Assembly (NCBI GenBank): GCA_964394435.1
Contig: CAYMXN010000003.1
Coordinates: 635 to 64,634, forward strand
Length of the DNA: 64,000 nt
Reading direction: 5' to 3'
Source of the DNA: an uncultured Candidatus Saccharibacteria bacterium
Lineage (GTDB): Bacteria; Patescibacteriota; Minisyncoccia; UBA6257; 1-14-0-10-44-23
Shown: positions 3,589-24,532 of the stretch, piece after piece
How the letters are laid out: every line of letters starts with the position of its first letter
How positions within the stretch are numbered: position 1 is the stretch's first letter
The notes under the pieces: generated by a model
The model's input: the letters and a program-made list of their open reading frames with translations, nothing else
Database searches by the model: none
What the model was told of the DNA's origin: nothing
Program-made: the position numbers and the translations under genes

Positions 3589-3618
3589 ACCTATATTCTA
3601 TCACGCGCTTTTGAGAAT

Positions 3619-3655
3619 AAAAAAAACGGCGGGCTCCCCAGGGAACTCCCGCCGT
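3619..3655 (-). terminator. Rho-independent terminator downstream of the GC-rich gene 3685..3993
   Basis: A-run (3619-3626) then stem CGGCGGG...CCCGCCG. On the minus strand the hairpin is followed by a U-run. Confidence 0.5.
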
Positions 3656-3684
3656 AGAATCTGACCGTTCGTCCGCGTAGCGAA

Positions 3685-3993: not shown

Positions 3994-4153
3994 CTGAACC
4001 TGAACCGTGGGACGACTGATAGAACACCTCCTTGAATGCGTGGTTTCTGACCGTCTGGTTCGTCAGTATTATAGCACACTTTAAGGTATTTTTCAAGAGC
4101 TCGAAAAGCCTGTAAAACAGGGCAAAAATGAGTAAATCTGCTACACTCATCAT

Positions 4154-6920: not shown

Positions 6921-6946
6921 AAAAACAGCCCTCCGGGGCTGTTTTT
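6921..6946 (+). terminator. Rho-independent terminator
   Basis: AAAAA-CAGCCC-tccg-GGGCTG-TTTTT. Confidence 0.6.
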
Positions 6947-6962
6947 GTTGTATGCTTACTAT

Positions 6963-8108
6963 ATGAAGCGTTTAGGCAGTTTCGCGATCTCAATGGTTTT
7001 ACTCTGGCTTTTAATAACGCCAGCTTTTGCGCAGACCGCGAAACGGTTTGGATTTATCGAGGGCAATATTTGGTACTCCAAAGATCCGTTTTTTGACGGA
7101 GATAAAATTCGTATTTATTCAGGCGTTATAAATAGTACCGGTCAGGATATCACCGGCAGTGTTGAGTTTTATGATGGCACGGAGCTCATTGGGAAAGTGG
7201 ATTTTTCCGCCGTGGGTAACGGTACGCTTCAGCAAGTATGGACAGATTGGACTGCGACTAAAGGAACGCATAAAATCTCCGCAAAAATTATCCAGGCGAA
7301 TATTGCTAAAGTAGGGGGAGGCGCCGAGCCGGTTGCGCTGGCAAACAGCAGCTCGGGAGAGGATAACCGATTTGTTGATTTTGATACTGATGCTGATGGG
7401 ATCGGGAACCTTAATGATACTGATGACGATGGCGACGGACTAACTGACGCGCAGGAGATAGCGAGCCATACCGATCCACTAAAAAAAGATACGGATGGCG
7501 ATGGGATTGCTGACAAAGAAGATGCGCACCCCCTAGTTGCCGATGTGCAGACCGCCACCTCAACAATCGCGGACATTATTCAGAGCGCCGGACCGGTTGT
7601 AAATCAAGTTGCCTCGACTACCGCTGCAGTAGCTACGAACATAGTGCAGGCGATTAATAATCTCGCCGACGCTGGTGCTGTGAAACTTGATACGAAAGCC
7701 GATGAGTTGAAAAAAGAGATTGCTGAATTAAAAAAAGAGGAGGAGGCGGCAAAGCAAGGGGATGCACAAATTGAGCAGCTCAAGCAGAGTACTTCTACCA
7801 TAGCGGCTACGGGTGGTAAGCCGGATGTTGCGGGAACTGCTACCTCAAAAGGAACATCCACCGCTTCAACCACGTCCGAGAAAGCAACGAACTGGTCATT
7901 TACCAAAAATACCGGACCAGTTGAGACGGCAAAGCCTAAAGTGAGTTCGTCTAAGCGGCTGATGAAGGAGTTTTATCTCGTGGTAATTTCGACGACCTCG
8001 TTTATCCTCAAACACAAGCTTTTATTGTATTTCGTAGTCCTTGTGGTAGCCTACAACATGCTGAAGTTTATCCTGCGCAGGCTTTTTAGGCGCAAGGAGG
8101 CTTACTAG
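6963..8108 (+). CDS. Secreted calcium-binding repeat protein (thrombospondin type-3-like DxDxDG repeats) with a C-terminal TM anchor
   Basis: Signal peptide MKRLGSFAISMVLLWLLITPAFAQ. Repeats DTDADGIGNLNDTDDDGDGLTDAQE...DTDGDGIADKED. C-terminal hydrophobic helix LLLYFVVLVVAYNMLKFIL followed by RRLFRRK. The track start at 6945 is a TTG; the ATG at 6963 is the more likely start. Confidence 0.6.
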   Translation: MKRLGSFAISMVLLWLLITPAFAQTAKRFGFIEGNIWYSKDPFFDGDKIRIYSGVINSTGQDITGSVEFYDGTELIGKVDFSAVGNGTLQQVWTDWTATKGTHKISAKIIQANIAKVGGGAEPVALANSSSGEDNRFVDFDTDADGIGNLNDTDDDGDGLTDAQEIASHTDPLKKDTDGDGIADKEDAHPLVADVQTATSTIADIIQSAGPVVNQVASTTAAVATNIVQAINNLADAGAVKLDTKADELKKEIAELKKEEEAAKQGDAQIEQLKQSTSTIAATGGKPDVAGTATSKGTSTASTTSEKATNWSFTKNTGPVETAKPKVSSSKRLMKEFYLVVISTTSFILKHKLLLYFVVLVVAYNMLKFILRRLFRRKEAY

Positions 8109-9102: not shown

Positions 9103-9239
9103 GGGGTAGATAAACGAGAGTTTTTATCCCCATCTTTAGAAGGGCTCTGTTTCGCGCGAGCATCGGATGTGGTACCCTAAGAGAGGTTTCAAAAAATCCT
9201 CCCACCTGGTCCTTAACAACCAACGCGGAGGATTTTTTG

Positions 9240-9590
9240 ATGAATACGGTAGAACCCGATGGTGATGTGGAGGTGTGGGTGCGGCGGCTGATGTCTGGGG
9301 AGATGAAGTTTCGATCGCCTCGAGGCTGGCGTGCTGTCGATGGTAGGCTTTGGAAGCTTAAGCCGTACGCTTGGCTAAGGGGAGTGTTGGCGCGCATAAG
9401 TGCTCGACTCGCTGTGCTACCGATCCCGAAGCCATACGCCATATACCACAACGCGATGGGTTTCCTGCTCTGTCTCTGGGAGGGTGATAGTGGATACGTG
9501 TGCACCAACATCATGATTCCCGGGACAAAGATCGAGCTTCTTCTGCATATGCACGACAATCGAGTAGTCGGCATTAAAGTGTGGGAGTAG
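9240..9590 (+). CDS. Hypothetical protein (116 aa)
   Basis: GGAGGA lies 8 nt upstream of the ATG at 9240. The gene is followed by the hairpin+T-run terminator at 9606-9645. No recognisable motif. Confidence 0.4.
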   Translation: MNTVEPDGDVEVWVRRLMSGEMKFRSPRGWRAVDGRLWKLKPYAWLRGVLARISARLAVLPIPKPYAIYHNAMGFLLCLWEGDSGYVCTNIMIPGTKIELLLHMHDNRVVGIKVWE

Positions 9591-9605
9591 TCTCGCACTC
9601 GTTTT

Positions 9606-9645
9606 GCGGCGATCGTCTAACGGTCGCCGCATTTTCATTTTCTTT
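9606..9645 (+). terminator. Rho-independent terminator (convergent pair, plus side)
   Basis: GCGGCGATCG-tctaa-CGGTCGCCGC followed by ATTTTCATTTTCTTT. Confidence 0.55.
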
Positions 9646-9655
9646 ATAAGTAAAT

Positions 9656-9691
9656 AAAAAATCGCCGATGCACGCAGGGTGCGCATCGGCG
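9656..9691 (-). terminator. Rho-independent terminator (convergent pair, minus side)
   Basis: AAAAA then CGCCGATGC-11 nt-GCATCGGCG. On the minus strand the hairpin is followed by a U-run. It sits 3' of gene 9700..9900. Confidence 0.55.
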
Positions 9692-9699
9692 GAAACAGA

Positions 9700-9900
9700 C
9701 TACGGGTTCGGGAAGAGCTCCGGGTGGTCGGTCAGGCACGTGTAGTGCCGCTGACCTTCGAAGGGGGAGCGGAGAACCACGCGCGTCGGAGCGGCGCCGC
9801 GGGGTTCGGTCTTGAAGAGGACTTCCGCTCCCGCCCGGGCCATGTCGATGCCGCTACCCTCGGTGATGGTGATCGGGTGTTCACGCGAACCGTCTTCCAT
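9700..9900 (-). CDS. Hypothetical small protein (66 aa)
   Basis: GGAGG lies 6 nt upstream of the ATG at 9900. The gene ends at the terminator. Sequence: MEDGSREHPITITEGSGIDMARAGAEVLFKTEPRGAAPTRVVLRSPFEGQRHYTCLTDHPELFPNP. Confidence 0.4.
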   Translation of the reverse strand: MEDGSREHPITITEGSGIDMARAGAEVLFKTEPRGAAPTRVVLRSPFEGQRHYTCLTDHPELFPNP

Positions 9901-9989
9901 AGGAATCCTCCAGGAGAAAAGGACCTCAACGAGTGTAAGCCAAATGTGCCAAAAAGAAAAGTGCCCAGCGCCACCTTGGTGGCGCTGGG

Positions 9990-10238
9990 CTAATCGTCTC
10001 GAGAACTGGAGTTCGGGAGACGAAGAATCGGAGCGGGAGGCTGCTTGGGCGGGTATCGCTCATCGGGGTGGGGAAAGTTCCGATCGCAATCCATACAGTA
10101 CGTTCGCCAACCCCAGAAGCGATTTCCCTCGATCGTGTAGCAGTGCGTGCACTCCGGTTCGTTGTTCGTAATGAAGATCCGTCGGAAGAAGATCGCGTAC
10201 AACCTCCTTCCCCAAACGCGGAAAAAGAATCTCATCAA
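9990..10238 (-). CDS. Small zinc-ribbon-like protein (ECTHC...14 aa...YCMDCD), Trp/Arg/Phe-rich N-terminus
   Basis: A CxxC-x14-CxxC pair. GGAGG lies 8 nt upstream of the ATG. Moderately GC-rich. Confidence 0.4.
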   Translation of the reverse strand: MMRFFFRVWGRRLYAIFFRRIFITNNEPECTHCYTIEGNRFWGWRTYCMDCDRNFPHPDERYPPKQPPAPILRLPNSSSRDD

Positions 10239-10340
10239 GTATCCTCCGGGAACTTATAATAATCTATCTGTGCACATCTGTCGATATAAAAACACCCAAG
10301 GCGCTCGTGGTGAGCATCTTGGGTGCGGAGTTTTCGTAAG

Positions 10341-10661
10341 CTATCGCTTTTGCCAGGTAATTTCCTGAATGAAATATTTGGCGTTGTCAGGAATAAAGCT
10401 CCAGACAATCAGCGGCATCTCTCCTTGGTGTTGTAGGTTGAGCAGGGCTTCGCGCCACTCTCTATCGCGCATCCGCTTTCCTTCAAGCAAGCCAGCTTGG
10501 AGTCCTTCTTCATAGCCGTTCGCTTGGCCACGAGCTTCAGCCTCTCGCTCTTTCGTAGTGAGCTCCCAATAGGTGTACTGTTTGCTGTAATCTTTGTGCT
10601 CGCAGGCATAGGAGCTGAAGAGCATACCCCAGAAAAACGCCACAATCGTCGCTACGCGCAT
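10341..10661 (-). CDS. Small secreted protein (signal peptide then charged helical region)
   Basis: MRVATIVAFFWGMLFSSYACEH... signal-like N-terminus, then an EREAEARGQANGYEEGLQAGLLEGKRMRDREWREALL helical segment. Confidence 0.4.
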   Translation of the reverse strand: MRVATIVAFFWGMLFSSYACEHKDYSKQYTYWELTTKEREAEARGQANGYEEGLQAGLLEGKRMRDREWREALLNLQHQGEMPLIVWSFIPDNAKYFIQEITWQKR

Positions 10662-10754
10662 AGGTGTCTCCAGAAAGTTCTATCCCCAACCTAGCAAAAG
10701 CTCAATATTTCCGCAAATAAAAATCCCGCTGAAATCATTTGATCGCAGCGGGTA

Positions 10755-10967
10755 CTAATCGGTACTTCCGTCAGACGCTTCGCAGTCGCAGAATTGGCCT
10801 TGCGTGAACATGTTGCAGCACGCTTGGTGCCAACTGGGCGGACCATATGGCCAGCGCTCGGGTGGTAGGTTTGGCTTCAGCTGTGATCCTCCAGGGATTT
10901 GATAGTCGTCGTCGCGCGGACCAGTCCAGCGCAACGGATTACCACTCCCAGCTGTCGAATTTTGCAT
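10755..10967 (-). CDS. Small Gly/Pro/Trp-rich protein with a C-terminal Cys cluster (ACCNMFTQGQFCDCEASDGSTD)
   Basis: ORF on the same strand as its neighbours, with no signal peptide. Coding status uncertain. Confidence 0.25.
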   Translation of the reverse strand: MQNSTAGSGNPLRWTGPRDDDYQIPGGSQLKPNLPPERWPYGPPSWHQACCNMFTQGQFCDCEASDGSTD

Positions 10968-11066
10968 TAAGCACCTCCAGCCTCAACATATCAAACGAGT
11001 ACTAAAATGTAAAACCCGCCCAAACCATTCGGTCGGGGCGGGCGCGCGAAGGATGGTGTGTCGGAG

Positions 11067-11501
11067 CTAGTCCGTGCACTCCATCTTGAAGAAGGAGAAT
11101 ATTACCCATGTGGTCAGGATGGTTGTCGCGGTAATCGTGATCCATGTGGGTGGCGACCAGAAGCCAACTCCGGCAACGAATCCAATACAACCAACGATCA
11201 TTAAGGCGATCCCCGCAAGGCCGTGGATTACATGGACGAAACGGTTGGTTTCTGCGTGATTTCGATCATTGGAATTGTGATCTTTCAGCTCGCCTCGACT
11301 CCATTTTAGCAAGTAATAACCACCGATCATGCTGGCTGCGCTCACGAGAAGGCAGAGCAGGTCGAGCCCGATCTGAGCAGGCCTCGAGGTGGCCGGTATC
11401 ACTTTATGGATGATGGGAATGAGCGGCGTCCCCATGACGATAATGACGTAGAGTGCGAAGAATACTGCGGTTCGCAGAGAATCAACCTTAGCCTTGGTCA
11501 C
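11067..11501 (-). CDS. Integral membrane protein (about 4 TM), hypothetical
   Basis: Four hydrophobic helices (FFALYVIIVMGTPLIPII, LLCLLVSAASMIGGYYLL, IHGLAGIALMIVGCIGFVAGVGFW, ITATTILTTWVIFSFF). Confidence 0.5.
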   Translation of the reverse strand: MTKAKVDSLRTAVFFALYVIIVMGTPLIPIIHKVIPATSRPAQIGLDLLCLLVSAASMIGGYYLLKWSRGELKDHNSNDRNHAETNRFVHVIHGLAGIALMIVGCIGFVAGVGFWSPPTWITITATTILTTWVIFSFFKMECTD

Positions 11502-11580
11502 GTGTTTTCTCCAGAGAAGGGTCAGCCCTCAACCTAGCAAATCCCTTTCTTTTCGGCAATCTTCGGGCGATAATAGGCGT

Positions 11581-14500
11581 ATGAGTTTCGAGCAGCAGCT
11601 CAAAAAACTAAACAAAGCCCAGCGGGAAGCGGTCGATACGATCGAGGGCCCGGTAATGGTGGTTGCGGGCCCGGGTACGGGTAAAACCCAGGTGCTGACT
11701 TTGCGTATCGCGAATATCATCAAGCAAACTGATACGCCTCCTGAAAGTATTTTAGCGTTGACATTTACCGAGTCCGCGGTGGCGGCGATGCGCAAACGAT
11801 TAGTGGAGGTGATGAGTGTTTCGACTCGAAGCACTACACAGCGTGATGCAGGCGGAGAGGCGTATCGCGTTTCGATCAAAACCATTCACGGGTTTTGTAA
11901 CGATATTATCCAAGACTATCCGGAAGAGTTTGCCGCAATCGCCGGAGCGACCAATATCACCGAGGTCGAACAGATTGATCTGATGCGCGAACTGCTTGAT
12001 GCCGGCGAATACGAACTCCTCCGTCCATTTGGCGACCCATACCGCAATATCAGAGATATCCTTGGTGCGATTGGCGACTTAAAACAAGAGGGCGTGCTGC
12101 CGGAAGATTTTGAGAAAATAGTGAAGGCCGAACAAAAACAATTCGACCTGATCGAAGATTTGTACAATGAGAGCGGGGCGTATAAAGGAAAGATGAAGGG
12201 TAAGTATCAGACCTTACAAAAACAAATCGCTAAGCACGCTGAAATCGCGCGCGTGTATACGGCGTATCAAAAAGAGCTCCGCAAACGGAAAAGCTATGAC
12301 TACGACGATATGGTGGTCGAGGTCGCTAAGGAGCTCGAGACAAACGAATCGCTTCTTTTGACCCTCCAAGAAAAGTACTTGTACGTATTAGTCGACGAGC
12401 ATCAAGATACCAACTCGAGTCAAAATAAAGTCATCGAACTTCTCGCAAGCTACGACGAACATCCAAACTTATTTGTCGTAGGTGATGAAAAGCAGGCGAT
12501 TTATCGTTTTCAGGGTGCGAGCGTAGAAAACTTTACCTACTTCCAAACGAAATTTAAAAAAGCCAAAATAATCGCGCTCACTGAAAACTATCGTTCACAC
12601 CAAACAATTCTTGATGCCGCCGTCGATGTCGCGCTCGGCAAAGGTCCGCTCAATGCAAACGTAAGTCATACGACTAAACCAATCCAGTTAGTCGCGCTTA
12701 GCCAGCCCGATGGCGAGCAGTACTTTATCGCGAGCGATATCAAAGAAAAAATAGAAAAGGGAGTAGCCCTCGAAGAAATCGCTGTGCTGTATCGAACTAA
12801 TAGCGATGCGGCTCCAATCGCCCGTATCTTAGAAAAGATGGGTGTTCCATTTGCCGTACAGTCTGATGAAGATGTGCTTGAGGATGATGATATGAAAAAG
12901 GCGCTGTGTCTGCTCGAGGCGGTGCGCGATTTTGGCCATGACTACGCTCTCGTCCCAGCTCTCTATATCGACTTCCTCGCCATCGCTCCGCTTGATGTCG
13001 CGCTCTTGCTCGAAGCCGCGCGCATGCAACGTTCAAAGATATTCCCGCTTGTTCGCGATCCAAAGATTCTCGAGCGCATTATCCCGCACTCTGGACGGAA
13101 AGTATTTGAGCTGTATCAAAAGCTCTCCCTCTGGAAGGCGATGAGTAAAAACCGCAACCCCGTTGAAGTCTTTGAGGCGATCGTGCGCGACAGTGGCTTA
13201 GTAAGTCATCTGCTCAAACTTCCAAACGCACAAGAAAAGCTGGCTAAGCTCCACGCACTATTTGATGAGCTCAAGAGTCTCGTGCGCAGTAAGCACAAGA
13301 CCACGCTCGAAGATTTTTTAAACCACCTTGAGATTATCCGTGAGCACCGCATTCGCATAAAAGCAAAAATCGCTGGTGCAAAACCATCCGCCGTTTCATT
13401 AATGACCGCTCACCGAGCGAAAGGGCTCGAGTTTGAGTACGTCTATATTACGGGTGCGACGCTCGGCCACTGGGGGAGTCGGCGCAACCGTGATTTTGTA
13501 AAATTGCCCGAAGCGATTTACTTCCGCTCGGGGATGGCTAAAGTAGAAGCGTCTACAGAAACCTCGAGCGAGCAAGGCGAAGAGGACGAGCGCAACTTAT
13601 TCTATGTCGCCCTTACTCGTGCGAAAAAAGAGGCGTATATAAGCTACGCAAAGAAAAATATCGATGGTAAAGATGAGCTCGTGAGTGAGTTTGTTTCAAG
13701 TATCCGCCCCGAGCTTATCGAGCAGGTAAAAACCGAAAAGATTGAAGCAGCGTTTGCTGCGCATCGCGACATCGAGTTTGTCGCCACGCCACAGCCGGAA
13801 AAGAGTACGACTGACGCCGCGTATCAAGAGTTTCTACAAAAGCGTTTTAAGGAAAAGGGGCTTTCAGTTTCTGCACTTAATACCTATCTCCGCTGTCCGC
13901 AGCAGTTTTTGCTCGTACATCTCGTTGGTATCCCCGAGGCGCCGAGTAAGTTTCTGCAATATGGAAACGCGGTCCACGCCGCACTGAAGTTTTTAAGCGA
14001 CAAACGAAAAGAGGGCGTCACCAAGGCGCAGGTAAGCAAGGTATTTCAAAACGCACTGAAGCGCGAGCCAATCAACGAGCGCGACTTAATAGACTTATTA
14101 AAGAAAGGCGAAAAAGCCCTCGGCAGTTATTACGACCGCAACTATAAAGCCTGGCCAGTTAACTCACTCGCCGAACAGTCAGTCTATGGCGTGCAAGTGG
14201 GTGATGTAGAACTCAAAGGTAAAATCGACCGCATTGATATTAATGAAGACGGCACCGCAACGGTTATCGACTATAAGACGGGCAAGGTAAAGAGCAGAAA
14301 TGAAATCGCAGGGACAACGAAAGATGCTGACGGCGATTACTATCGTCAGCTCGTGTTCTATAAGTTATTACTCGAGAAGAGCGGTAAATATCAGGTGAAG
14401 GAGGGGGCGATCGACTTTGTCGAGGCCGACGCGAAGGGGAAGTTCCACAGAGAAATCTTCGCCCCGTCCGACAAGGAGGTTGCCGACCTTGAGGAGCTGA

Positions 14501-14586
14501 TTAAAGAAGTCGCTCAAAAAATCCTCGCTGGGGAGTTTGAGGGGTGCGGCGAAAAAGATTGTAAATATTGCGAGCTCGCTTTATAA
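11581..14586 (+). CDS. UvrD/PcrA-family SF1 helicase fused to a C-terminal Cas4/AddB-like PD-(D/E)xK nuclease with an Fe-S Cys cluster
   Basis: Walker A AGPGTGKTQV, motif II LVDEHQDTN, FVVGDEKQAIYRFQGA, helicase motif VI-like ...LFYVALTRAK. C-terminal nuclease: CPQQF...GKIDRIDINEDGTATVIDYKTGK...YYRQLVFYKLLL...EGCGEKDCKYCEL. The ATG at 11581 (MSFEQQLKKLNKAQREAVD) is preferred over the track's TTG at 11494. Confidence 0.85.
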   Translation: MSFEQQLKKLNKAQREAVDTIEGPVMVVAGPGTGKTQVLTLRIANIIKQTDTPPESILALTFTESAVAAMRKRLVEVMSVSTRSTTQRDAGGEAYRVSIKTIHGFCNDIIQDYPEEFAAIAGATNITEVEQIDLMRELLDAGEYELLRPFGDPYRNIRDILGAIGDLKQEGVLPEDFEKIVKAEQKQFDLIEDLYNESGAYKGKMKGKYQTLQKQIAKHAEIARVYTAYQKELRKRKSYDYDDMVVEVAKELETNESLLLTLQEKYLYVLVDEHQDTNSSQNKVIELLASYDEHPNLFVVGDEKQAIYRFQGASVENFTYFQTKFKKAKIIALTENYRSHQTILDAAVDVALGKGPLNANVSHTTKPIQLVALSQPDGEQYFIASDIKEKIEKGVALEEIAVLYRTNSDAAPIARILEKMGVPFAVQSDEDVLEDDDMKKALCLLEAVRDFGHDYALVPALYIDFLAIAPLDVALLLEAARMQRSKIFPLVRDPKILERIIPHSGRKVFELYQKLSLWKAMSKNRNPVEVFEAIVRDSGLVSHLLKLPNAQEKLAKLHALFDELKSLVRSKHKTTLEDFLNHLEIIREHRIRIKAKIAGAKPSAVSLMTAHRAKGLEFEYVYITGATLGHWGSRRNRDFVKLPEAIYFRSGMAKVEASTETSSEQGEEDERNLFYVALTRAKKEAYISYAKKNIDGKDELVSEFVSSIRPELIEQVKTEKIEAAFAAHRDIEFVATPQPEKSTTDAAYQEFLQKRFKEKGLSVSALNTYLRCPQQFLLVHLVGIPEAPSKFLQYGNAVHAALKFLSDKRKEGVTKAQVSKVFQNALKREPINERDLIDLLKKGEKALGSYYDRNYKAWPVNSLAEQSVYGVQVGDVELKGKIDRIDINEDGTATVIDYKTGKVKSRNEIAGTTKDADGDYYRQLVFYKLLLEKSGKYQVKEGAIDFVEADAKGKFHREIFAPSDKEVADLEELIKEVAQKILAGEFEGCGEKDCKYCELAL

Positions 14587-14722
14587 CGTGCTTCGCAATT
14601 CGGTATAAAAAACGGCGCGCTAGGTGCGTAAGATGTGAGGATACTTTACAAAAATCAGTATTTGTATTATATTATGTGGACTTCTCGCGGGGTAGTCTCG
14701 TGAGATGTGGAGCGTCTAAACG

Positions 14723-15211
14723 ATGCGAAAGTTCCTGACGGTGTTCTGTTTGCTCGCGGTTGTCGTGGGTGTGGCCTACGCCGCTGGCGGGTTCGACCAG
14801 TGGGGCTACAACGACCAGGCTCGGGTCTTCAATGGCCCGGCCGACGGCGTGGACCGCAACAACGACGGGCTGATGTGGGGCGATCCCACGTACGCCAACG
14901 ACAAGCTGAACATGAAGTGGTCCGAGGACTGGATCCGCGGCAACGACGAGGGCTGGACCAACCCGCCCTACGCCGACGCCTGGACGTCCAACCACTGGAA
15001 CGGCAAGGTCAAGAACGGCTCCGGCGAGACCTGGCAGTACAAGATCGTCTGGGTCGGCCCGGAGCTCTCGGCGAGCACGTACTGGCGTCCGGGTGGCTAC
15101 GCCATCTGGGGGCAGTTCGAGGTGATCATGAGCCACGGCACGGTGGCCAACGAGCACTTCTGGGACGCGCACGCGCGGCCCACCGGCTACGGCTGGAACG
15201 GCGGCAACTAG
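14723..15211 (+). CDS. Secreted Trp/Asn/Gly-rich hypothetical protein encoded by a very GC-rich, GC3-biased gene
   Basis: Signal peptide MRKFLTVFCLLAVVVGVAYAAGG. Nearly every codon ends in C or G (GGC/GAC/AAC/TAC/CTG), unlike the flanking genes. ORFs open in all frames and on both strands over this patch are the usual high-GC artefact. Confidence 0.55.
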   Translation: MRKFLTVFCLLAVVVGVAYAAGGFDQWGYNDQARVFNGPADGVDRNNDGLMWGDPTYANDKLNMKWSEDWIRGNDEGWTNPPYADAWTSNHWNGKVKNGSGETWQYKIVWVGPELSASTYWRPGGYAIWGQFEVIMSHGTVANEHFWDAHARPTGYGWNGGN

Positions 15212-15396
15212 GCAGCACTCGGCGTGTAAAGCGCTTCAGCGAAAGGGGCAACCCTTTATGGCTGGATCCTTCGGGGTCCAGTCATTTTTAATTTACAGCA
15301 CCAACTCTGGAAAATATTGCGGTGTTTTGGGTGGGGATAATTTAAGCAGGGGCGAGGGGTATACTTAAAGCATATCTGTCGGAGAAAACTTTCGGT

Positions 15397-18135
15397 ATGA
15401 CCATTTCACAACTGGTTAGACGCCGCCGGTTATTCACCTTCGTCTTCACGATCGCCAGTTTTATATTGTCCTTATCGGTAGTTCGAGGAGCTACTACAAT
15501 GTATGAAATTACCAATGCCGGCGTTGCCGGCAATATTTTTGGCGGAAATTCAGGAACGGTAAGTGATATTATCTCGCAAAAATATGTCGCACCAGAAAAT
15601 CAAACACTGTGCACGGTATATCTAAAGGTGTATCGCATTAGCGCCGGCATCACAAAGCCAAGTTTGGTCTTAAGAGTTCGTCAGGGTGGTGGTCCGATAG
15701 ATGGGGAGCAAATCAGTATGGTTTCTGTGCCAGCCACTTCGCTCCCAACCAGCCTAGGTGCGTATGTTCCTTTTGTACTTCCAAGTTGTGTTTCACTAAC
15801 TGCCGGCACTACGTATTGGTTTACCTTTGAAAATTTTGAGCAGCCATATGTGACATCGTTTGGATATTATGTCGCCGGGTATCGTAATAGTGATCAGTAT
15901 AGCTACTCCTCGCAATGGCTAAGAACGTGTTCGGCGTGTGTCCCAGGGTACGCGCTCGTTGAAAATACAAATCGCGAGTGGGGGCTCAAGTTTGAGGGCC
16001 CCGACCCACTCCCGACAGTTTCAGATTTAAAGCAATCAAGACTTGATGGCACGACCGCTCTCGCCGAAGATGAAAAGCTTGATCAAGGCGAGCTAGTCTT
16101 AAGTGCAAAAATAAGTAGTCCATTTAATAAAAAGCTGAAGCTCGAAGTCTCAATCGAAGAAGCGTCGAGCGCGCCAGCCATATATAGTAGCGAACTGATT
16201 GACTCGGGTGGCGTCGCAAGTATCACGCTTCACAACTTCCCCGACGGGGATTATCTCTGGCGCGCCCGAACAGTTGATATAGATGGCGCCACTTCCTCGT
16301 GGACTTCATTTGGTGCGCCGGAGGTGCAAGACTTTCGTATTCACCGCACGCCGATTATCATCGTCCCGGGTATTTTAGGCACATATCTCGGCCAAGGAGA
16401 TGATTTACTTTGGGCGAACCTCGCGCGAATGCTTCTTGATGTCAATGACGAGTTTTTAAGTACCGGCCTGGCGATGGATAGCGAAGGCAACTCGGTCAAC
16501 AACATCACGGTGGGAGAGGCAATAACGGTAGTTTTAAATCATGTTCCTGGATTCGAAGTAAATACCTTTTTGGATCTTAAGGAGTCATTTAACAATATCC
16601 AATATATTCAAGATAAAAATCTCTTCTTTTTTCCATACGACTGGCGCGTCGACCTCAACATAACCAAAGACTTACTCAAGCAGAAAATCGACGAGGTAAA
16701 ACAAAAAACTGGCGCTACAAAGGTAGATATTATTGCGCACAGTATGGGCGGCTTGCTGACTAAAAACTATCTTAATCTGTACGGTAAAGAGAGTATTGAT
16801 AAGCTCATCTTTGTTGGTACGCCCCACTTAGGCGCACCCAAGGCGGCGAAAACGCTCTTAGTTGGCGAGCGCTTTGATATTCCGATGCTCGCCGACTCGG
16901 CGATGCGGTCTCTCGCTCTTAACGCTCCAGCGGTATACGAGCTCTTGCCGGGCCAAACCTATTTCAATCAGGCCCAAGGATATATCAAAACAAAAGGCTC
17001 AACTGATGTGCTTGGTTATTCTGCCACTAAAGATTTCCTAGTGAGTGGCGGAGTAAATTGGAATATTTTAGATAAGACGCAAAACTTTTTTGGTAAAAGC
17101 CTGGAGGAGATGAGCCTCGACGGGATAGACGCGTATAACATCGCCGGCTGTCGGAGCGCGACTCAAGCAGGGTATGAGTTCGGAGCTGACAAGACCGATA
17201 TCGTAGCACTCCGTGAATCTTCGGGCGATGGTACCGTCCCACTCGAGAGCGCTGACTACGTTAACGTTCCGAATAATCACAAGTTTTATTTTAAAGACGC
17301 GACTCACTCAAAGCTTCCAAGCGCTGAATCAGTGCGCAATATAATTTTGAATATTATCAAAGGTGAACAGGTGACACTTCCGAGCGATTTGGCGCAAGGC
17401 GATAGCTCGTTTTGTGATTTTAAAGGTAAAGAGCTCCTCTGGCACAGTCCAGTCGAGGTGCACGTCTATGACGAGCTGGGTAATCACACCGGGCCAACAG
17501 AAAACAATGTAATCGAGTACAATATCCCGGGAGTGGAGTACCAGATTGTCGGGCACAACAAGTTCATCTTCTTGCCAACCGACACGGGCCACGTATATCG
17601 TATCGTCTCGCACGGTACTGATGCGGGCACCTTTGATTTATTTGTGCGAGAAAATAACAATGGCGAGATCGCGTCGACCAAGCTCTATAACGACATCCCA
17701 ATAACTACGAGTAGCAATATGGAGTTTAGTCTCTCGAGTGAGAGCGTGGATAACGAAATAACTATTAGCGATGGCGAAGAAGCGACGCGGGTAATCACCG
17801 CCGTGGCCGCACAGGGGATGGCTGATGGTGACGTGGTAATCACAACAACGCCGACCCCAACCGAGTCAGCAGCGAGTACGACCGAAGAGGTTTTGTCAGA
17901 GCCAGCGGCGCCAGCACCACAAACGAATACCATAACAGGTGGGGGCGGAGGTGGCGGTACATATTATTACGCCTCACCAGCTCCAGAGGGGCAGGTGTTA
18001 GGAGCTTCGATTGGATTTGCCGATAGCGCAGAGCTTAAGCGCAAAGCGCTCCTTGAGCAGATCGTAGTCATTCTTCAGCAGATTATCAGTCTACTTAGGC
18101 AACAGCTCCAAATTAAAACCAATATAGTATACTAA
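15397..18135 (+). CDS. Large secreted alpha/beta-hydrolase (LCAT/PGAP1-like lipase/acyltransferase domain) with an unknown roughly 300-aa N-terminal domain, a Gly7 linker and a C-terminal helical tail
   Basis: N-terminal anchor LFTFVFTIASFILSLSVVRG. Lipase core IIIVPGILGTYLG...FFFPYDWRVDL...KVDIIAHSMGGLLTKNYL...FVGTPHLGAPKAAK (GxSxG nucleophile elbow, LCAT-like PYDWR). The run TITGGGGGGGTYYY lies near the C-terminus. Confidence 0.55.
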   Translation: MTISQLVRRRRLFTFVFTIASFILSLSVVRGATTMYEITNAGVAGNIFGGNSGTVSDIISQKYVAPENQTLCTVYLKVYRISAGITKPSLVLRVRQGGGPIDGEQISMVSVPATSLPTSLGAYVPFVLPSCVSLTAGTTYWFTFENFEQPYVTSFGYYVAGYRNSDQYSYSSQWLRTCSACVPGYALVENTNREWGLKFEGPDPLPTVSDLKQSRLDGTTALAEDEKLDQGELVLSAKISSPFNKKLKLEVSIEEASSAPAIYSSELIDSGGVASITLHNFPDGDYLWRARTVDIDGATSSWTSFGAPEVQDFRIHRTPIIIVPGILGTYLGQGDDLLWANLARMLLDVNDEFLSTGLAMDSEGNSVNNITVGEAITVVLNHVPGFEVNTFLDLKESFNNIQYIQDKNLFFFPYDWRVDLNITKDLLKQKIDEVKQKTGATKVDIIAHSMGGLLTKNYLNLYGKESIDKLIFVGTPHLGAPKAAKTLLVGERFDIPMLADSAMRSLALNAPAVYELLPGQTYFNQAQGYIKTKGSTDVLGYSATKDFLVSGGVNWNILDKTQNFFGKSLEEMSLDGIDAYNIAGCRSATQAGYEFGADKTDIVALRESSGDGTVPLESADYVNVPNNHKFYFKDATHSKLPSAESVRNIILNIIKGEQVTLPSDLAQGDSSFCDFKGKELLWHSPVEVHVYDELGNHTGPTENNVIEYNIPGVEYQIVGHNKFIFLPTDTGHVYRIVSHGTDAGTFDLFVRENNNGEIASTKLYNDIPITTSSNMEFSLSSESVDNEITISDGEEATRVITAVAAQGMADGDVVITTTPTPTESAASTTEEVLSEPAAPAPQTNTITGGGGGGGTYYYASPAPEGQVLGASIGFADSAELKRKALLEQIVVILQQIISLLRQQLQIKTNIVY

Positions 18136-18735: not shown

Positions 18736-19398
18736 ATGAAAATTAAGGATCTTCCGAAAGTAGATCAGCCGCGGGAAAAATTGGCTAAATATGGGCCGGA
18801 GAAGTTGAATAACTCCGAGCTTCTGGCGATTTTACTGCGCACGGGTATGAAAGGGACGAACGTTGTCGAACTCGCTCGGCAGATTTTACAGCAGATTGGC
18901 GGGAAGAATCTCGCGAGTGTTACGCTGACAGATTTAAAAAAGATTAAAGGGCTTGGGCCGACGAAGGCCGGGCAGATTATTGTTTCACTCGAACTCGGGA
19001 AGCGGTTTCTGAAAGACAAGAAGTCCGTGCTTCATCTTTCACCTGCGGACGTGTATGAGCAACTCAAAGATATTCGGGATTTAAAGAAAGAGCATTTTGT
19101 CGTGCTCTTTCTTGATTCCCGCAGTCAGGAGATTAAACGAGAGACGGTTTCAGTAGGTATACTTAATGCGAGCCTAGTACATCCACGGGAAGTTTTTGAG
19201 CCAGCCATCAAGTGTAATGCTGCGCAAGTGATTGTTGCGCACAATCATCCGTCGGGGGGCGCGGAGCCGTCAGAAGAGGACATTCAAATTACAAAACGCC
19301 TCGTCGAAGCAGGAAAGTTGCTCGGGATAGAGCTATTAGATCATGTGATTGTGGCGATAAAGGGCTTTACGAGTCTGAAAGTCCAGGGGTTGTTTTAG
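18736..19398 (+). CDS. radC: RadC-family JAB/MPN domain protein (UPF0758)
   Basis: N-terminal HhH-like ELLAILLRTG...GLGPTKAGQII. JAMM motif ...VIVAHNHPSGGAEPSEEDIQITKRL. Confidence 0.85.
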   Translation: MKIKDLPKVDQPREKLAKYGPEKLNNSELLAILLRTGMKGTNVVELARQILQQIGGKNLASVTLTDLKKIKGLGPTKAGQIIVSLELGKRFLKDKKSVLHLSPADVYEQLKDIRDLKKEHFVVLFLDSRSQEIKRETVSVGILNASLVHPREVFEPAIKCNAAQVIVAHNHPSGGAEPSEEDIQITKRLVEAGKLLGIELLDHVIVAIKGFTSLKVQGLF

Positions 19399-19470: not shown

Positions 19471-19806
19471 ATGGATAACAACAAAACGATGTCAATCTCG
19501 GAGGGGCGCAAGCGGATTTTTGAAATTTTAGAAGAGGTACAAAAGCCCGGAGTCCACTACACCTTTACCGAAAAAGGAAAATCAAAAGGCGTATTAATGT
19601 CAGCCGAAGAGTTTGATTCACTTCAGGAAACCCTTGAGATATTAAGCGATCCTATGATCGCAAAGAAAATCGAGCTTGCTGAAGCGGAGTATCAGCGCGG
19701 TAACTATGTTACCTGGAGTGAGTTTAAAAAAGAATTGCATGCGAAGGATCGGGCAAATATTGTTGCGGATAAGAGCAGTAAAAAGTATCGAGCCGGTAAA
19801 AAATAA
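19471..19806 (+). CDS. Phd/YefM-family type II antitoxin
   Basis: MSISEGRKRIFEILEEV...YTFTEKGKSKGVLMSAEEFDSLQETLEILSDPMIAKKIELAE matches the YefM/Phd pattern. It sits immediately upstream of a RelE-like ORF. An alternative ATG is at 19489. Confidence 0.7.
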   Translation: MDNNKTMSISEGRKRIFEILEEVQKPGVHYTFTEKGKSKGVLMSAEEFDSLQETLEILSDPMIAKKIELAEAEYQRGNYVTWSEFKKELHAKDRANIVADKSSKKYRAGKK

Positions 19807-20117: not shown

Positions 20118-20702
20118 ATGTATAAGGAATTACATGAGATCGCCACAGTTATAGCCGGATATACCTTCCGGGGGGCTATTACGCCTGATGCGAATGGGGA
20201 TCTTTATGTATTCCAAGCAAAGGATCTTGTGCGGAATGAGACTGTCCAAGATGTTAATGCTTTAACGAAGATCAGCTCAAATATTCCGGGGTATGCCGGG
20301 CATCTTGAGCGAAACGACGTGTTGCTTGTCGCTCGCGGCATGAAAGCCGGAGCGTTTCGGGCGACAGTTTTTGAAGCCGAAGACAAGAATGTCATCGCGT
20401 CTTCTTCTATCCATGTTATTCGCGTCACAAAGGAAGGCGTTCTCCCTGAGTACGTTTCTCATTATTTAAACTCAAGGCAGGGGCAGGAGGCGCTCGCTGA
20501 GATTGTTACCGGCTCATATATCGGGGCGCTGCCGCGTAAGGCGCTTGAGAAGCTGAAAATTCCTATACCTCATTTCAAAAAACAGCAGATGCTGATAGAT
20601 CTTTATCAAAATATACGAGAACAGCAAAAGATCATCAGTCAGCAAAACGAGATCAAACAGAGGATTGTCAGCGAAACACTTAAAAACCTAACCAACGCCT
20701 AA
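20118..20702 (+). CDS. hsdS: Type I restriction-modification specificity subunit, half-size (single target-recognition domain plus conserved coiled-coil)
   Basis: TRD-like N-terminal region then the conserved HsdS central/C-terminal helix ...LPRKALEKLKIPIPHFKKQQMLIDLYQNIREQQKIISQQNEIKQ. 194 aa against 419 aa for the downstream full hsdS. Confidence 0.65.
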   Translation: MYKELHEIATVIAGYTFRGAITPDANGDLYVFQAKDLVRNETVQDVNALTKISSNIPGYAGHLERNDVLLVARGMKAGAFRATVFEAEDKNVIASSSIHVIRVTKEGVLPEYVSHYLNSRQGQEALAEIVTGSYIGALPRKALEKLKIPIPHFKKQQMLIDLYQNIREQQKIISQQNEIKQRIVSETLKNLTNA

Positions 20703-20705
20703 CCT

Positions 20706-22220
20706 ATGACTGCTATCAAAAAATATTCACAAGAGGAACTAAACAAAACGCTTTGGGCGGCCGCGGACTCTTCGCGTAGTAGCGTGGATGGGGGAGTGTA
20801 TAAGGACTATGCGCTGACGATGCTCTTCTTTAAGTACTTGAGCGATTTAAATAAAAAGCGACACGCCGAGTACAAGGCGCGGTTTGGTGCTGATGAGAAA
20901 CGTATTGAGGAGAAGATGAAGCTCGACCGGTTCTATCTCCCACCGAAGTCGTCTTTTGATTATATCTACAGCAAGATCGAAGAGGATAATATCGGTGAAG
21001 AAGTGAATAAGGTGCTTCACCGCATTGAAGACGCGAATAAAGAGAAGCTCGAGGGTGTTTTTAGTGTGGACTTCAACTCTGAGTCAGTACTCGGCAAACT
21101 TGAGCAACGGAATAAGATGCTGCGCCACCTGATTCAGGATTTTGCGAAAATCGATTTGTCTGACGCGGGTGAAGATGTAATCGGTGGAGCATATATGTAC
21201 ATGATCGAGCGCTTTGGTGCTGACGCGGGCAAAAAAGCGGGGGAATTTTTTACGGTTAGAAACGTAGCGAAGCTTGTGGCGATGCTGGCTGGGCCGAAAG
21301 AAGGTGATCGTATTTGTGACCCGGCGATGGGATCGGGAGGTTTGCTTTTGCTCGCCGGGGAAGAAGTTGAAAAGCAGGGCTCAAAAAACTACGCGCTCTA
21401 TGGGCAGGAGTCGACGGGTTCAACGTATCAACTTGCGCGGATGAATATGTTTTTGCACGGAAAGGATTCGGCTCGAATTGAGTGGGGAGACACGCTTAAC
21501 AATCCGCTTCTCGTGGAGAACGACCAGCTGATGCACTTCGATGTTGTCGTCGCCAACCCGCCGTTTTCGCTTAAGAAGTGGGGCGCGGAGCACGCTGAGA
21601 GCGATAAGTATAAGCGGTTCTGGCGCGGTGTGCCGCCGAAGGACAAGGGTGATTATGCTTTTGTGACGCACATGATCGAGACGGCGAAGCCGAAAACGGG
21701 GCGTGTGGCGGTGATCGTACCGCACGGCGTGCTTTTCCGCGGCGGTGCCGAGGGAAAGATCCGCGAGCAGCTTTTGAAAGAAAACATTATCGACGCGGTG
21801 ATCGGTCTTCCCGCCGGGCTCTTTCAGACAACGGGTATCCCGGTGGCGGTTTTGATTATTGACCGGTCGCGCGAGAAGGGCGGAGCGAACGAGAAAAAGA
21901 AAGACGTGCTGTTCATTGAGGCGTCAAAAGAGTTTAAGGCGAACAAGGCGCAGAACATTCTGACCGACGAGAACATCGCCAAGATTTTCGACACCTATAA
22001 GAAGCGTAAAGACGTTGAGAAGTTTTCGCGCAAGGTGAGCTTTAAAGAGATCGAGGAGAACGACTTCAACCTCAATATCACGCGCTACGTGGATACCTTT
22101 GTTGAGGAAGCGCCGGTGGATATCAAGGCGAACTTGAAAGAACTAGCTGAGCTCGAGCCGCAACTGCAAAAGCTCGAGAAGCAAATGGTCGAGTATTTAA
22201 AGGAGCTGGGGATTAAATAG
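20706..22220 (+). CDS. hsdM: Type I restriction-modification N6-adenine DNA methyltransferase subunit
   Basis: HsdM_N-like N-terminus. Motif I ICDPAMGSGGLLL. Motif IV FDVVVANPPFSLKKW. Confidence 0.9.
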   Translation: MTAIKKYSQEELNKTLWAAADSSRSSVDGGVYKDYALTMLFFKYLSDLNKKRHAEYKARFGADEKRIEEKMKLDRFYLPPKSSFDYIYSKIEEDNIGEEVNKVLHRIEDANKEKLEGVFSVDFNSESVLGKLEQRNKMLRHLIQDFAKIDLSDAGEDVIGGAYMYMIERFGADAGKKAGEFFTVRNVAKLVAMLAGPKEGDRICDPAMGSGGLLLLAGEEVEKQGSKNYALYGQESTGSTYQLARMNMFLHGKDSARIEWGDTLNNPLLVENDQLMHFDVVVANPPFSLKKWGAEHAESDKYKRFWRGVPPKDKGDYAFVTHMIETAKPKTGRVAVIVPHGVLFRGGAEGKIREQLLKENIIDAVIGLPAGLFQTTGIPVAVLIIDRSREKGGANEKKKDVLFIEASKEFKANKAQNILTDENIAKIFDTYKKRKDVEKFSRKVSFKEIEENDFNLNITRYVDTFVEEAPVDIKANLKELAELEPQLQKLEKQMVEYLKELGIK

Positions 22221-22223
22221 TCT

Positions 22224-23285
22224 ATGAAAGTGCTTGCCACTAGGTCGACATCTAATGAGACGATGGACATATCGGTCGTCGTTCTCAGAGAAAATAGCAA
22301 AACGCGGCTCGTTTTCTGTCCGAGTTGGGTTACTCCGTCAAGTAACCCATTGCGCGGAGGCTTTCGTTTTCAGCGGAAAGGACCAAAAGATCTTTGGGTT
22401 AATGTTGACCATAAGCCGCTTTCGACCCTTAAAAAAGATGAGGGTTATGAGCTCAATCTTGATGGAGCGGAAATGGCGAAGTTATTTGATGAACTCGGAG
22501 ACATCAGGGAGGTGCTTGCAAAGTATGGGCATTCCTCTGGCACAAGGACTTTAATTTTAAGTGAGAAAAATGCTGGTGGTATTTTTCTTCAGATCGGTGA
22601 GCTGGAAAATCGCGATTGGGTTATTAAACAACTTAAAACGCTGGAAAATGAAAATTTTGAAAACCTTGGATCGGCAATTGGCCGGGCGAGACTAGAGGCA
22701 GCGATTGAGAAGTTTGGAAAGAATTTGGCGAATACAGATGAGAAATTCTGGGAGGATTTTTTCGAAAGTAGTCCATGGATACTTCAGCAGGTCTTCGCAT
22801 TTCCTGTTATATATCTCAATGGCGAGACATATCTCGGCGGTAAAAATTCAAAAGGGCGTCAAGGTTCGGGTGGTTCAGCAACTGATTTCCTTTTTAAGCA
22901 TGGTTCGAATGGCAGTTTTGCCGTCGTCGAAATTAAAACACCTGGCTGTGGCCTCGTCGGCGGGAAGTATCGAGGCGACAAAGATTCTGACGAAAAGAAT
23001 GAACTTTACGGTATTCATGGCGAATTGAGTGGGGGCGTGGTGCAGATGGAGAACCAGATTAATATTGCGATAGAGCATTTTAAGACGACGATCGGAGAGG
23101 ACTATGAAGGCTTGAATCATTTAAACCCAGCAGGTGTTTTAATCGCCGGGGATTATTCTAAATTGAAGCCGGCAGAACGAAAGTCTTTTGATTTATTCCG
23201 GAAGTCGTTAGGTAAAAATCAAATTTATACTTTCGACGAAGTGCTTGCTAAGTTGAAGCTCTTAAAAGTTGTCTATGAAAGCTAA
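22224..23285 (+). CDS. DUF4263/Shedu-like PD-(D/E)xK nuclease-family protein embedded in the type I RM operon
   Basis: The C-terminal roughly 170 aa fits the DUF4263 layout: ...PWILQQVF...ATDFLFKHGSNGSFAVVEIKTPG (D...E-x-K core), ...VVQMENQINIAIEHF (Q-helix), ...PAGVLIAGDYSKL...NQIYTFDEVLAKLK (characteristic C-terminal iiTyDeLl). The N-terminal roughly 180 aa have no recognisable motif. The start is 3 nt after the hsdM stop and the stop overlaps the hsdS start. Confidence 0.55.
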   Translation: MKVLATRSTSNETMDISVVVLRENSKTRLVFCPSWVTPSSNPLRGGFRFQRKGPKDLWVNVDHKPLSTLKKDEGYELNLDGAEMAKLFDELGDIREVLAKYGHSSGTRTLILSEKNAGGIFLQIGELENRDWVIKQLKTLENENFENLGSAIGRARLEAAIEKFGKNLANTDEKFWEDFFESSPWILQQVFAFPVIYLNGETYLGGKNSKGRQGSGGSATDFLFKHGSNGSFAVVEIKTPGCGLVGGKYRGDKDSDEKNELYGIHGELSGGVVQMENQINIAIEHFKTTIGEDYEGLNHLNPAGVLIAGDYSKLKPAERKSFDLFRKSLGKNQIYTFDEVLAKLKLLKVVYES

Positions 23286-24528
23286 CTCAGCTCAAAAAAA
23301 TATTCCTGATGGGTGGAGAAGCGTTCGAATAAGGGATGTGGCTTTCTTGAACAAAAAAAGCCTTGGTAACGAAACCCCAGAAAATTTTAAGTTTAAATAT
23401 ATTGACCTATCGTCTGTTGATAATGGTGTAATTAAATTGCCGTTGGAATATGTCCGGTATGGAGAGTCGCCATCACGAGCGAGGAGAGTATTCAAAAAAG
23501 GCGATATATTAATGGCAACTGTAAGGCCAAATCTGCTCGGGCACTGCATAGTTAATTTTGATGCACATGAATACATTGGCTCCACTGGTTTTGCGGTAAT
23601 CGAAAATAAAAAAGATCAGTTGAATAACTATTTTCTATTCTCTTATTTGTTTTCAAAAAAATTACGGGATCATTTGAATAACATGCTAGTTGGGTCGAGC
23701 TACCCAGCCATTAATTCATTAGAAGTCGCGAATCTCAAAGTTGATCTTCCTCCTCTTCCCGAGCAGAACCGCATCGTGGCGGTGCTGGAGACTTGGGATA
23801 GGGCTATCGAGAAGCTGGCTCGGAAAATTGAGGTTAAAAAGAATATTAAAATGGGCTTGATGCAGGAGCTCCTTACCGGCAAAACCCGTCTACCGGGATT
23901 TAAGGGAGTGTGGGAGAAGGTTGAGCTAGAAAAAGTTATGCTAAGTTTTACTACAGGCTTAAATCCAAGAGATAATTTCTTGCTCGGAACAGGAAACAAT
24001 TTTTATGTAACGATAAAAAATATCTCACAAGGTCGGTTAGATTTCTCGAGTTGCGAACGCATCGATGATCGTGCGTTAGGGCTCATTAACAAAAGATCAG
24101 GCCTAAACGTGGGCGATATTATAATGGCTAGCATTGGCAATGTAGGTGATGCTTTTCTCGTAGGGGATAAACCAAAGAATTGGGATATAAACGAGTCAGT
24201 TTTTTGCTTAAAGCCAAATCCCAAAATTGTCTACTCTCAATTCGTATATTACATCATCACAAGCCAGGCGGCTCAAAAGTATTTCAGCAATAATATCACC
24301 GGGAGCTCCTTTAGGAGTATTAAAATGAAAGAGCTCAGGGCTATGCCCATTAATTTAATACCCTTAGATGAACAAAGGAAGATTGTTGATATTTTACTAA
24401 CTATAGATCGCGAGCTGAGCATTCTAGAGAGAAAATTGGGGAATTTCCAGGACCAGAAAAAGTATCTACTCAATAACTTGATCACCGGCGCGATTCGAAC
24501 GCCGGAGAAGATGAAAATTCACTCATAA
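23269..24528 (+). CDS. hsdS: Type I restriction-modification specificity subunit, full length (two target-recognition domains)
   Basis: Two TRD-like halves separated by the conserved central helix ...PLPPLPEQNRIVAVLETWDRAIEKLARKIEVKKNIKMGLMQELLTGKTRLPGF, and a C-terminal conserved helix ...LIPLDEQRKIVDILLTIDRELSILERKL. Confidence 0.85.
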   Translation: MSMKANSAQKNIPDGWRSVRIRDVAFLNKKSLGNETPENFKFKYIDLSSVDNGVIKLPLEYVRYGESPSRARRVFKKGDILMATVRPNLLGHCIVNFDAHEYIGSTGFAVIENKKDQLNNYFLFSYLFSKKLRDHLNNMLVGSSYPAINSLEVANLKVDLPPLPEQNRIVAVLETWDRAIEKLARKIEVKKNIKMGLMQELLTGKTRLPGFKGVWEKVELEKVMLSFTTGLNPRDNFLLGTGNNFYVTIKNISQGRLDFSSCERIDDRALGLINKRSGLNVGDIIMASIGNVGDAFLVGDKPKNWDINESVFCLKPNPKIVYSQFVYYIITSQAAQKYFSNNITGSSFRSIKMKELRAMPINLIPLDEQRKIVDILLTIDRELSILERKLGNFQDQKKYLLNNLITGAIRTPEKMKIHS

Positions 24529-24532
24529 TCAT

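Follow-up and report, generated by a model that had tools for sequence, protein, structure and literature searches.

The window analysed here, a 64-kb stretch of the metagenome-derived contig CAYMXN010000003.1, contains one short gene, the islet gene, whose codon usage differs sharply from that of the surrounding DNA. Judged by its leader, its product, the islet protein, is secreted. We conclude, with a probability of roughly 85%, that a high-GC source recently supplied the islet gene, as a single gene, to a Parcubacteria-group genome, where it occupies a variable slot. Recent acquisition from a high-GC donor had already been proposed in an initial annotation of the window, and our data support it. 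We favor horizontal acquisition because of the compositional break, a syntenic slot that is empty of the gene in a relative (contig L092), a second copy with unrelated flanks (contig L174) and a family tree in which the two domains of life are scrambled. The host itself is taken to be a bacterium of the candidate phyla radiation (CPR), Parcubacteria group, because the best named matches of its TypA/BipA protein come from Candidatus Harrisonbacteria, Paceibacterota, Parcubacteria and other Patescibacteria (64-70% identity); further relatives of this protein are found at 84-99% identity.

Composition of the islet gene

The open reading frame (ORF) of the islet gene is present as initially annotated (162 aa at 14723-15211), and its translation contains every motif that had been quoted for it. 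Its GC content at the first, second and third codon positions is 0.56, 0.47 and 0.94, respectively. For comparison, GC content at third positions (GC3) was calculated for 566 sliding windows of 163 codons from 12 large host genes, which gave a mean of 0.51 with a standard deviation (sd) of 0.06 and a maximum of 0.75. The islet ORF lies about 7 sd above this distribution, so the sharp discontinuity reported in the initial annotation is real (0.94 versus 0.51 ± 0.06). The adjacent genes, described there as ordinary, are indeed so, with GC3 of 0.55 for the upstream helicase gene and 0.50 for the downstream lipase gene. We also determined the highest positional GC, irrespective of frame, in every 450-nt window of the 64 kb (mean 0.55, sd 0.06). 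The sole place that exceeds 0.78 is 14.6-15.3 kb; the islet is thus unique within the 64 kb, and the similarly high GC3 elsewhere that could have spoken against an import was not seen there. The GC-rich stretch runs from ~14720 to ~15290 and corresponds to the ORF plus a 3' hairpin.

All 16 Lys, Glu and Gln codons of the islet gene end in G, while G-ending codons make up 50-60% of these codons in the host. C or G endings prevail in each of its codon families. Because of these two features the codon choice is a signature of mutational bias and not of translational selection. The codon log-likelihood of the gene under host usage deviates little (z = -2.1); this value is small because host usage is nearly flat, and GC3 is the informative statistic. 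The claim that almost every codon ends in G or C holds for the gene overall but less so for its leader, where 5 of the first 21 codons end in A or T, versus 5 of the remaining 142 (Fisher test, p = 0.004). Similarly, the region had been described as open in all six frames; three frames have no stop along the gene, but the other three contain 3-6 stops. The long antisense ORF listed in Table 1 recurs solely in high-GC3 homologues (a cluster of 15 loci).

Integrity of the assembly

A sharp GC jump over ~550 bp of a metagenome assembly could also arise if a high-GC fragment had been wrongly joined into a Parcubacteria contig, and mis-assembly had been raised as a concern in the initial annotation. 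We found four Logan contigs from four independent runs (SRR13076513, SRR14271353, SRR13076512 and SRR13076518) that are 100% identical to the window and encode the exact islet protein. Two of them, L085 and L086, cross both islet junctions (window 11073-16596 and 13180-17742), and the other two, L087 and L088, reach across just the 3' junction. Moreover, the islet gene comes with a start, a leader, a stop and a terminator of its own and fits exactly between two host genes, and the same pattern occurs in a second Parcubacteria-like contig (L174, see below). A chimeric assembly is thereby largely refuted, and we regard its probability as close to negligible.

The helicase-lipase slot in relatives and a second copy of the gene

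Three metagenome contigs (L090-L092) keep the gene order Dus, helicase, lipase and g18140, with protein identities to the window of 66%, 67%, 51% and 77%, respectively; the lipase orthologue of L092 lies 3' of the same helicase. No homologue of the islet gene is present in the helicase-lipase slot of the syntenic relatives L092 and L090. In L092 three other genes occupy the slot (9136-11399): a minus-strand ORF of 304 aa and genes for an ArsR-type helix-turn-helix protein and a DUF559/MTES_1575 nuclease-like protein. GC rises there to 0.62 at 9500-9950. As this slot contains other genes in L092 and GC rises there, we consider it variable in the lineage. An apparent helicase synteny with contig L006 was a false lead (22% identity, not adjacent) and was set aside.

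A second GC-rich copy (P0468) was found via the 90% cluster of the islet protein, on L174, a 44-kb contig with a GC content of 0.49. It is 90% identical to the islet protein and 88% identical in DNA, and its GC3 is also 0.94. The contig shares with the window the helicase (53% identity), a DUF1428 protein (92%) and a DUF1801 protein (75%), and its copy of the islet gene has an AstE/AspA-like gene on one side and a reverse-transcriptase gene on the other. DNA homology between the window and L174 is confined to the part coding for the mature domain (window 14795-15211). Neither the leader nor either flank of the two copies aligns better than shuffled controls (p > 0.2); a likeness between their 5' untranslated regions was dropped on the same grounds, being not significant against shuffles.

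The two copies might go back to one import into the Parcubacteria lineage followed by exchange between CPR cells or by local rearrangement. Their 88% nucleotide identity, their position in both genomes no more than 2.5 kb downstream of a UvrD/PD-(D/E)XK gene and their common MRK start are in line with such a history; the unalignable leaders and flanks and the different surrounding genes argue against it. We consider a single shared import doubtful, the odds being clearly against it, and it would still require a recent high-GC origin, so that it refines rather than replaces the explanation by import from a high-GC source.

Horizontally acquired genes of atypical composition drift towards host composition with time, a process termed amelioration by Lawrence and Ochman. 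Synonymous sites of host genes are saturated between the window and L174, the proportion of synonymous differences (pS) being 0.78 for UvrD and 0.75 for DUF1801, yet both copies of the islet gene keep a donor-like composition; we therefore conclude that they arrived after their hosts had diverged. The timing of the transfer follows from this amelioration argument only and not from synonymous substitution rates (dS).

A further gene of L174, coding for a Band_7/SPFH protein (713-1714, minus strand), has a GC3 of 0.94 in the 0.49-GC background; by its composition, this gene too was imported into that genome from a high-GC source.

Spread and phylogeny of the family

Database searches with the islet protein returned 716 homologues (E ≤ 0.01). 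Among these, the best 120 share 55-72% identity, are 121-209 aa long, are named hypothetical where named at all, and have no precomputed Pfam domain. A HMMER search of 1.84 billion cluster representatives gave only 272 clusters at E ≤ 1e-3, and hence the family is compact. Among GTDB species representatives (one genome per species), we found 178 loci with 49-69% identity; going by record titles, they come from bacteria of more than 15 phyla and from archaea of six lineages or more. Within Patescibacteria, they come from Woese-, Levy-, Roizman-, Collier-, Kaiser- and Jorgensenbacteria, Saccharibacteria and Parcubacteria. Other bacterial loci belong to Planctomycetota, Chloroflexota, Bacteroidota/Ignavibacteria, Actinomycetota, Gammaproteobacteria, Thermotogae, Gemmatimonadota, Acidobacteriota, Caldisericota, Atribacterota, Spirochaetota, Verrucomicrobiota and Nitrospirae. 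Archaeal loci are labelled Woesearchaeota, Nanoarchaeota, Aenigmatarchaeota, Bathyarchaeia, Methanomethylicales and Methanosarcinales, and one Hermodarchaeota match occurs among the 716 homologues. When the neighbours of three archaeal-labelled loci (L075, L042 and L037) were searched against Pfam, an XPD-type helicase was identified in L042.

In a neighbour-joining (NJ) tree of 81 mature domains, bacterial and archaeal phyla are intermixed throughout. The median pairwise identity among the mature domains is 66%, and the top identity between an archaeon and a bacterium reaches 88% (Bathyarchaeia versus Ca. Solincola). The islet protein is sister to a copy from a Planctomycetota metagenome-assembled genome (MAG) in 72 of 100 NJ bootstraps. 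This copy, the nearest relative outside the window and L174 genomes, shares 74% of residues over the mature domain, 68% over the full length and 77.7% of nucleotides with the islet gene; it has a GC3 of 0.97 and lies on a contig of 71% GC. DNA homology to other loci (blastn) is restricted to 14786-15211, and the leader-coding part has no DNA homology to other copies.

In the initial annotation, the codon usage had been called actinobacterial-like, top protein matches in Actinobacteria had been expected, and it had been speculated that the gene stems from an actinobacterial host of an epibiotic cell. The organism is indeed a member of Patescibacteria, some of which live on Actinobacteria. The codon usage fits any genome of ~70% GC, and the Band_7/SPFH gene of L174 hints at repeated imports from high-GC partners. 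The homology search, however, did not bring up Actinobacteria as top matches: Actinomycetota homologues (L018, L027 and L038) are 53-60% identical and are placed elsewhere in the tree, while the islet protein groups with the Planctomycetota copy. Homologues in more than 15 phyla argue against any specific link, and we know of no host for Parcubacteria-group organisms. Nothing ties the gene to a host, and we consider derivation from an actinobacterial host very improbable.

Composition varies across the family. In hosts with a median GC3 below 0.55, the GC3 of family genes exceeds that of the host by at least 0.2 in 6 of 32 cases, versus 2 of 260 control ORFs (Fisher test, p = 2.6e-5). The islet copy shows the largest excess among family copies (+0.43 over its host), and no copy strongly GC3-poor relative to its host was seen. 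These data bear on the idea that the islet gene is native, or anciently resident, and that its high GC3 is kept by selection for translation efficiency, mRNA stability or mRNA structure. Asn, Asp, Tyr, Phe, His and Gly are abundant in the protein, and for these residues C-ending codons are often favored in highly expressed genes. In addition, family members in low-GC hosts are GC3-richer than their neighbours by 0.08 on average, and GC3 is 0.94 in both related hosts, that of the window and that of L174. On the other hand, many members in low-GC hosts are fully host-like, with gene and host GC3 of 0.26 and 0.24 in L007 (a complete Woesebacteria chromosome), 0.23 and 0.24 in L014, and 0.29 and 0.29 in L083. 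The exclusive use of G-ending Lys, Glu and Gln codons fits no host preference, and no other gene in the 64 kb comes near such a bias. The absence of the gene from L092 and the unrelated flanks and leaders of the two GC-rich copies also contradict long residence. We therefore regard a native gene shaped by selection as improbable.

Several observations weigh against a recent import and have to be set beside the evidence for it. The family as a whole leans GC3-positive, and codon selection could explain part of this. The nearest relative with an empty slot is rather distant, its helicase being 67% identical. No donor sequence closer than 74% amino acid identity was found outside the two Parcubacteria-like contigs, and the taxon labels of MAG loci are those of record titles only. 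The transfer cannot be dated by pS: the value between the window and the Planctomycetota copy (L005) is only 0.39, and pS is uninformative here because a GC3 near 0.95 caps it. The borders of the islet bear no signatures of mobility either, with no integrase, insertion sequence or mobility gene adjacent, no tRNA gene at the borders (the nearest is 29.8 kb away) and no convincing target-site repeat, the 10-nt direct repeat AAATATTGCG that brackets the islet being at chance level. This repeat pair is probably fortuitous, since about one such pair is expected in 1.4 kb by our estimate.

Overall, we suggest that the imported unit would have comprised approximately the ORF and its 3' hairpin, about 550-570 bp, and would have entered the variable slot between the UvrD/PD-(D/E)XK helicase and lipase genes. 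In this reading, its source had a GC3 of at least 0.94 and is unsampled in databases. The family, whose members are secreted or lipid-anchored, travels without companion genes between numerous phyla of both domains, and its imports into low-GC genomes occur so often that a good number of copies still differ from their hosts in composition. In the present host, the gene may be transcribed from a host-like AT-rich promoter; its product would be exported by Sec and cleaved after AYA, and the mature domain would act outside the cell.

The islet protein: leader, fold and possible function

The signal peptide claimed in the initial annotation is well supported. The leader has the n-h-c layout MRK-FLTVFCLLAVVVGV-AYA, with A as the first residue after the predicted cut, and in the AlphaFold2 model residues 5-21 form a helix of low predicted local distance difference test score (pLDDT). 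A hydrophobic leader is present in 109 of 120 homologues, 21 of which have a lipobox, and leaders are variable.

The mature domain consists of 9% Trp, 15% Gly, 10% Asn and 8% Asp and has no Cys. There are 33 invariant columns among close homologues. Across the wider superfamily, Gly28, Tyr29, Asn30, Phe36, Gly38, Trp66, Trp70, Asn90 and Trp129 are invariant, and Asp25, Arg45, Lys65, Asp71, Trp87 and Lys107 nearly so. A loop with the pattern ADGVDRxLDG, probably structural in role, is swapped for Cys...Cys loops in distant relatives. Some relatives have an insert of ~110 aa or extra N-terminal domains: some genomes possess a paralogue (L013 6581-7387, minus strand; P0127, P0135 and P0158) with a beta-rich domain of ~110 aa between WVGPE and W..GGY, and in P0179 the same domain is N-terminal instead. 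This extra domain has no Pfam match.

Searches of Pfam-A, NCBIfam, PHROGs and PADLOC gave no family at E ≤ 1 for the islet protein and no match for distant or multidomain relatives either, and profile searches of PDB sequences gave nothing below E 0.1. With an alignment of 150 sequences that included the distant subfamily, AlphaFold2 predicted an alpha+beta domain of seven strands and two short helices (pLDDT 88.7, predicted template-modelling score 0.77; pLDDT ~97 over residues 21-150). A model built from 40 close homologues (pLDDT 52.7) was discarded. Foldseek comparison of the predicted fold with PDB returned no significant match (best E 1.2, TM-score at most 0.31), nor did comparison with BFVD (best E 0.33). 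In our literature search, nothing relevant to the family was found. To judge from the libraries and literature searched, the family seems not to have been described before.

The initial annotation had suggested a carbohydrate- or cell-wall-binding module. We found no sequence or fold similarity of the islet protein to carbohydrate-binding module (CBM), lectin, LysM, SH3b or peptidoglycan-binding families, and with no Pfam family and no PDB fold match that suggestion was a guess from composition. Given its predicted place outside the cytoplasm, its lack of partner genes and its invariant Tyr, Asn, Asp and Trp, the protein may be a self-sufficient binding domain, or a small enzyme, for a widespread ligand. 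As the polar residues are very highly conserved across phyla, an invariant ligand seems preferable to varied protein targets. A glycan is our leading guess for this ligand, plausible but with odds well below even; no homology speaks for it.

Gene context of the family

An all-against-all BLAST comparison of 921 ORFs from 81 loci revealed no conserved neighbour beyond the family itself and the antisense artefact. The 138 immediate neighbours represent 112 different Pfam families, none of them seen in more than two. Neither 50,697 phage nor 72,556 plasmid records contained a tblastn match, and one weak partial match was found in the 2.9 million contigs of IMG/VR. One homologue (P0005; L170 10995-13719) lies 2.5 kb from genes for a heavy-metal P-type ATPase and a DUF305 protein, and the window has a heavy-metal P-type ATPase gene at 42516-44741, 27 kb from the islet. 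No consistent link of the family with such ATPases was seen across the loci.

Features of the islet and its surroundings

Coordinates of the islet gene, its borders and its flanking genes are given in Table 1. The 5' intergenic region is probably host DNA and not part of the imported DNA, because it cannot be aligned with the 5' flank of the 90%-identical L174 copy. On the 3' side, GC is 0.54 at 15212-15290 and 0.43 at 15291-15396. Pfam searches support the flanking assignments (UvrD-helicase 7.8e-63, UvrD_C 6e-40 and PDDEXK_1 1e-34 upstream; LCAT 2.9e-26 downstream).

Table 1. Features of the islet gene and of the DNA around it, in window coordinates
Feature	Position	Strand	Remark
UvrD-type helicase fused to PD-(D/E)XK nuclease	11494-14586	+	Upstream flank, GC3 0.55
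10-nt exact direct repeat	14563-14572 and 15312-15321	+	Pair brackets the islet
5' intergenic region	14587-14722	+	GC 0.44, host-like
Sigma-70-like site TTTACA-17-TATATT	14645-14673	+	Candidate promoter
Antisense ORF, 166 aa	14672-15172	-	By-product of GC-rich third positions, not a gene
GGAG Shine-Dalgarno-like motif	14709-14712	+	
Secreted-protein gene (islet ORF)	14723-15211	+	162 aa
Sec-type signal peptide, residues 1-20, MRKFLTVFCLLAVVVGVAYA	14723-14782	+	Predicted cleavage between AYA and AGG
Mature domain, ~140 aa, with stop codon	14783-15211	+	Conserved islet core, GC3 ~0.96
Intrinsic-terminator-like hairpin (12-bp stem, 4-nt loop, then T tract)	15258-15295	+	3' end of the GC-rich stretch
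LCAT/alpha-beta-hydrolase lipase-like protein, 912 aa	15397-18135	+	Downstream flank, GC3 0.50

Further features of the window were noted in passing. Just 3' of the lipase gene, two genes adjoin a defence cluster, one for a RadC-like JAB-domain protein (18736-19398) and one for a Phd/YefM antitoxin (19471-19806). The cluster contains a type I restriction-modification operon (20118-28421) made up of an HsdS fragment, HsdM, HsdS and HsdR and followed by a YgjP-like gene; within it, hsdM and hsdS are separated by an inserted Shedu SduA defence gene (22224-23285). The product encoded at 6945-8108, 387 aa long and probably also located at the cell surface, has a calcium-binding repeat of the bacterial thrombospondin type-3 kind (TSP3_bac). 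Two GC-rich stretches (~0.58-0.62) of 550-750 nt, at 3590-4150 and 9600-10340, are without a convincing ORF and may be unannotated structured RNAs. An Rfam scan gave no match for the first of them and for the second only a sub-threshold COG3610-DE hit (9656-9781; 22.9 bits versus a gathering score of 73.5).

Implications and comparison with known systems

Taken alone, the islet is a clear example of recent import into a reduced CPR genome, though not an unusual one. The interest lies in the family: a small, strongly conserved secreted domain, unannotated and with no structural relative detected in the libraries searched. Its gene crosses between phyla of bacteria and archaea unaccompanied by partners and often retains the base composition of its donor. 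A function that serves surfaces as different as those of Gram-negative bacteria, CPR cells and archaea deserves to be identified. More broadly, and at somewhat short of even odds, this undescribed extracytoplasmic family of ~140 aa, with its confidently predicted fold that lacks a PDB counterpart, could rank with the single genes that pass most freely between bacteria, CPR included, and archaea, DPANN included, in anoxic or subsurface communities, and could provide a self-sufficient surface function in any envelope. If this is true, unameliorated copies in CPR genomes could trace the DNA exchange partners of these cells; the copies in the window and in L174 offer a handle on the DNA donors, perhaps the physical partners, of Parcubacteria-group cells.

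The islet gene resembles other ameliorating horizontal islets in its sharp GC3 break, its patchy distribution, the conflict between tree and taxonomy and its absence from the corresponding site of a relative. It differs from them in being a single gene of ~0.55 kb without integrase, tRNA, insertion sequence or convincing repeats. It is also unusual in that the recipient is a reduced CPR genome and that the same family is anomalous repeatedly in different recipients.

At the protein level, small aromatic-rich CBMs and lectins provide one comparison. Like them, the islet protein is predicted to be secreted, has ~140 aa and is rich in Trp, Asn, Asp and Gly, and Tyr29, Asn30, Asn90 and several Trp residues are conserved superfamily-wide; unlike them, it has no match in Pfam or, by Foldseek, among PDB chains. 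The cytochrome P460 and beta-sheet cytochrome c' fold (6hiu and 7ead), which is among the top Foldseek rows, is likewise small, secreted and dominated by beta-sheet, but the matches are insignificant (E 2-4, TM-score 0.22-0.31, probability at most 0.15), and the mature islet protein has neither a CxxCH haem motif nor any Cys. MliC/PliC lysozyme inhibitors are orphan periplasmic or lipoprotein inhibitors encoded by small stand-alone genes. The islet protein shows no sequence or structure similarity to them, but the analogy of a small stand-alone gene that is useful in any recipient fits wide transfer without partners.

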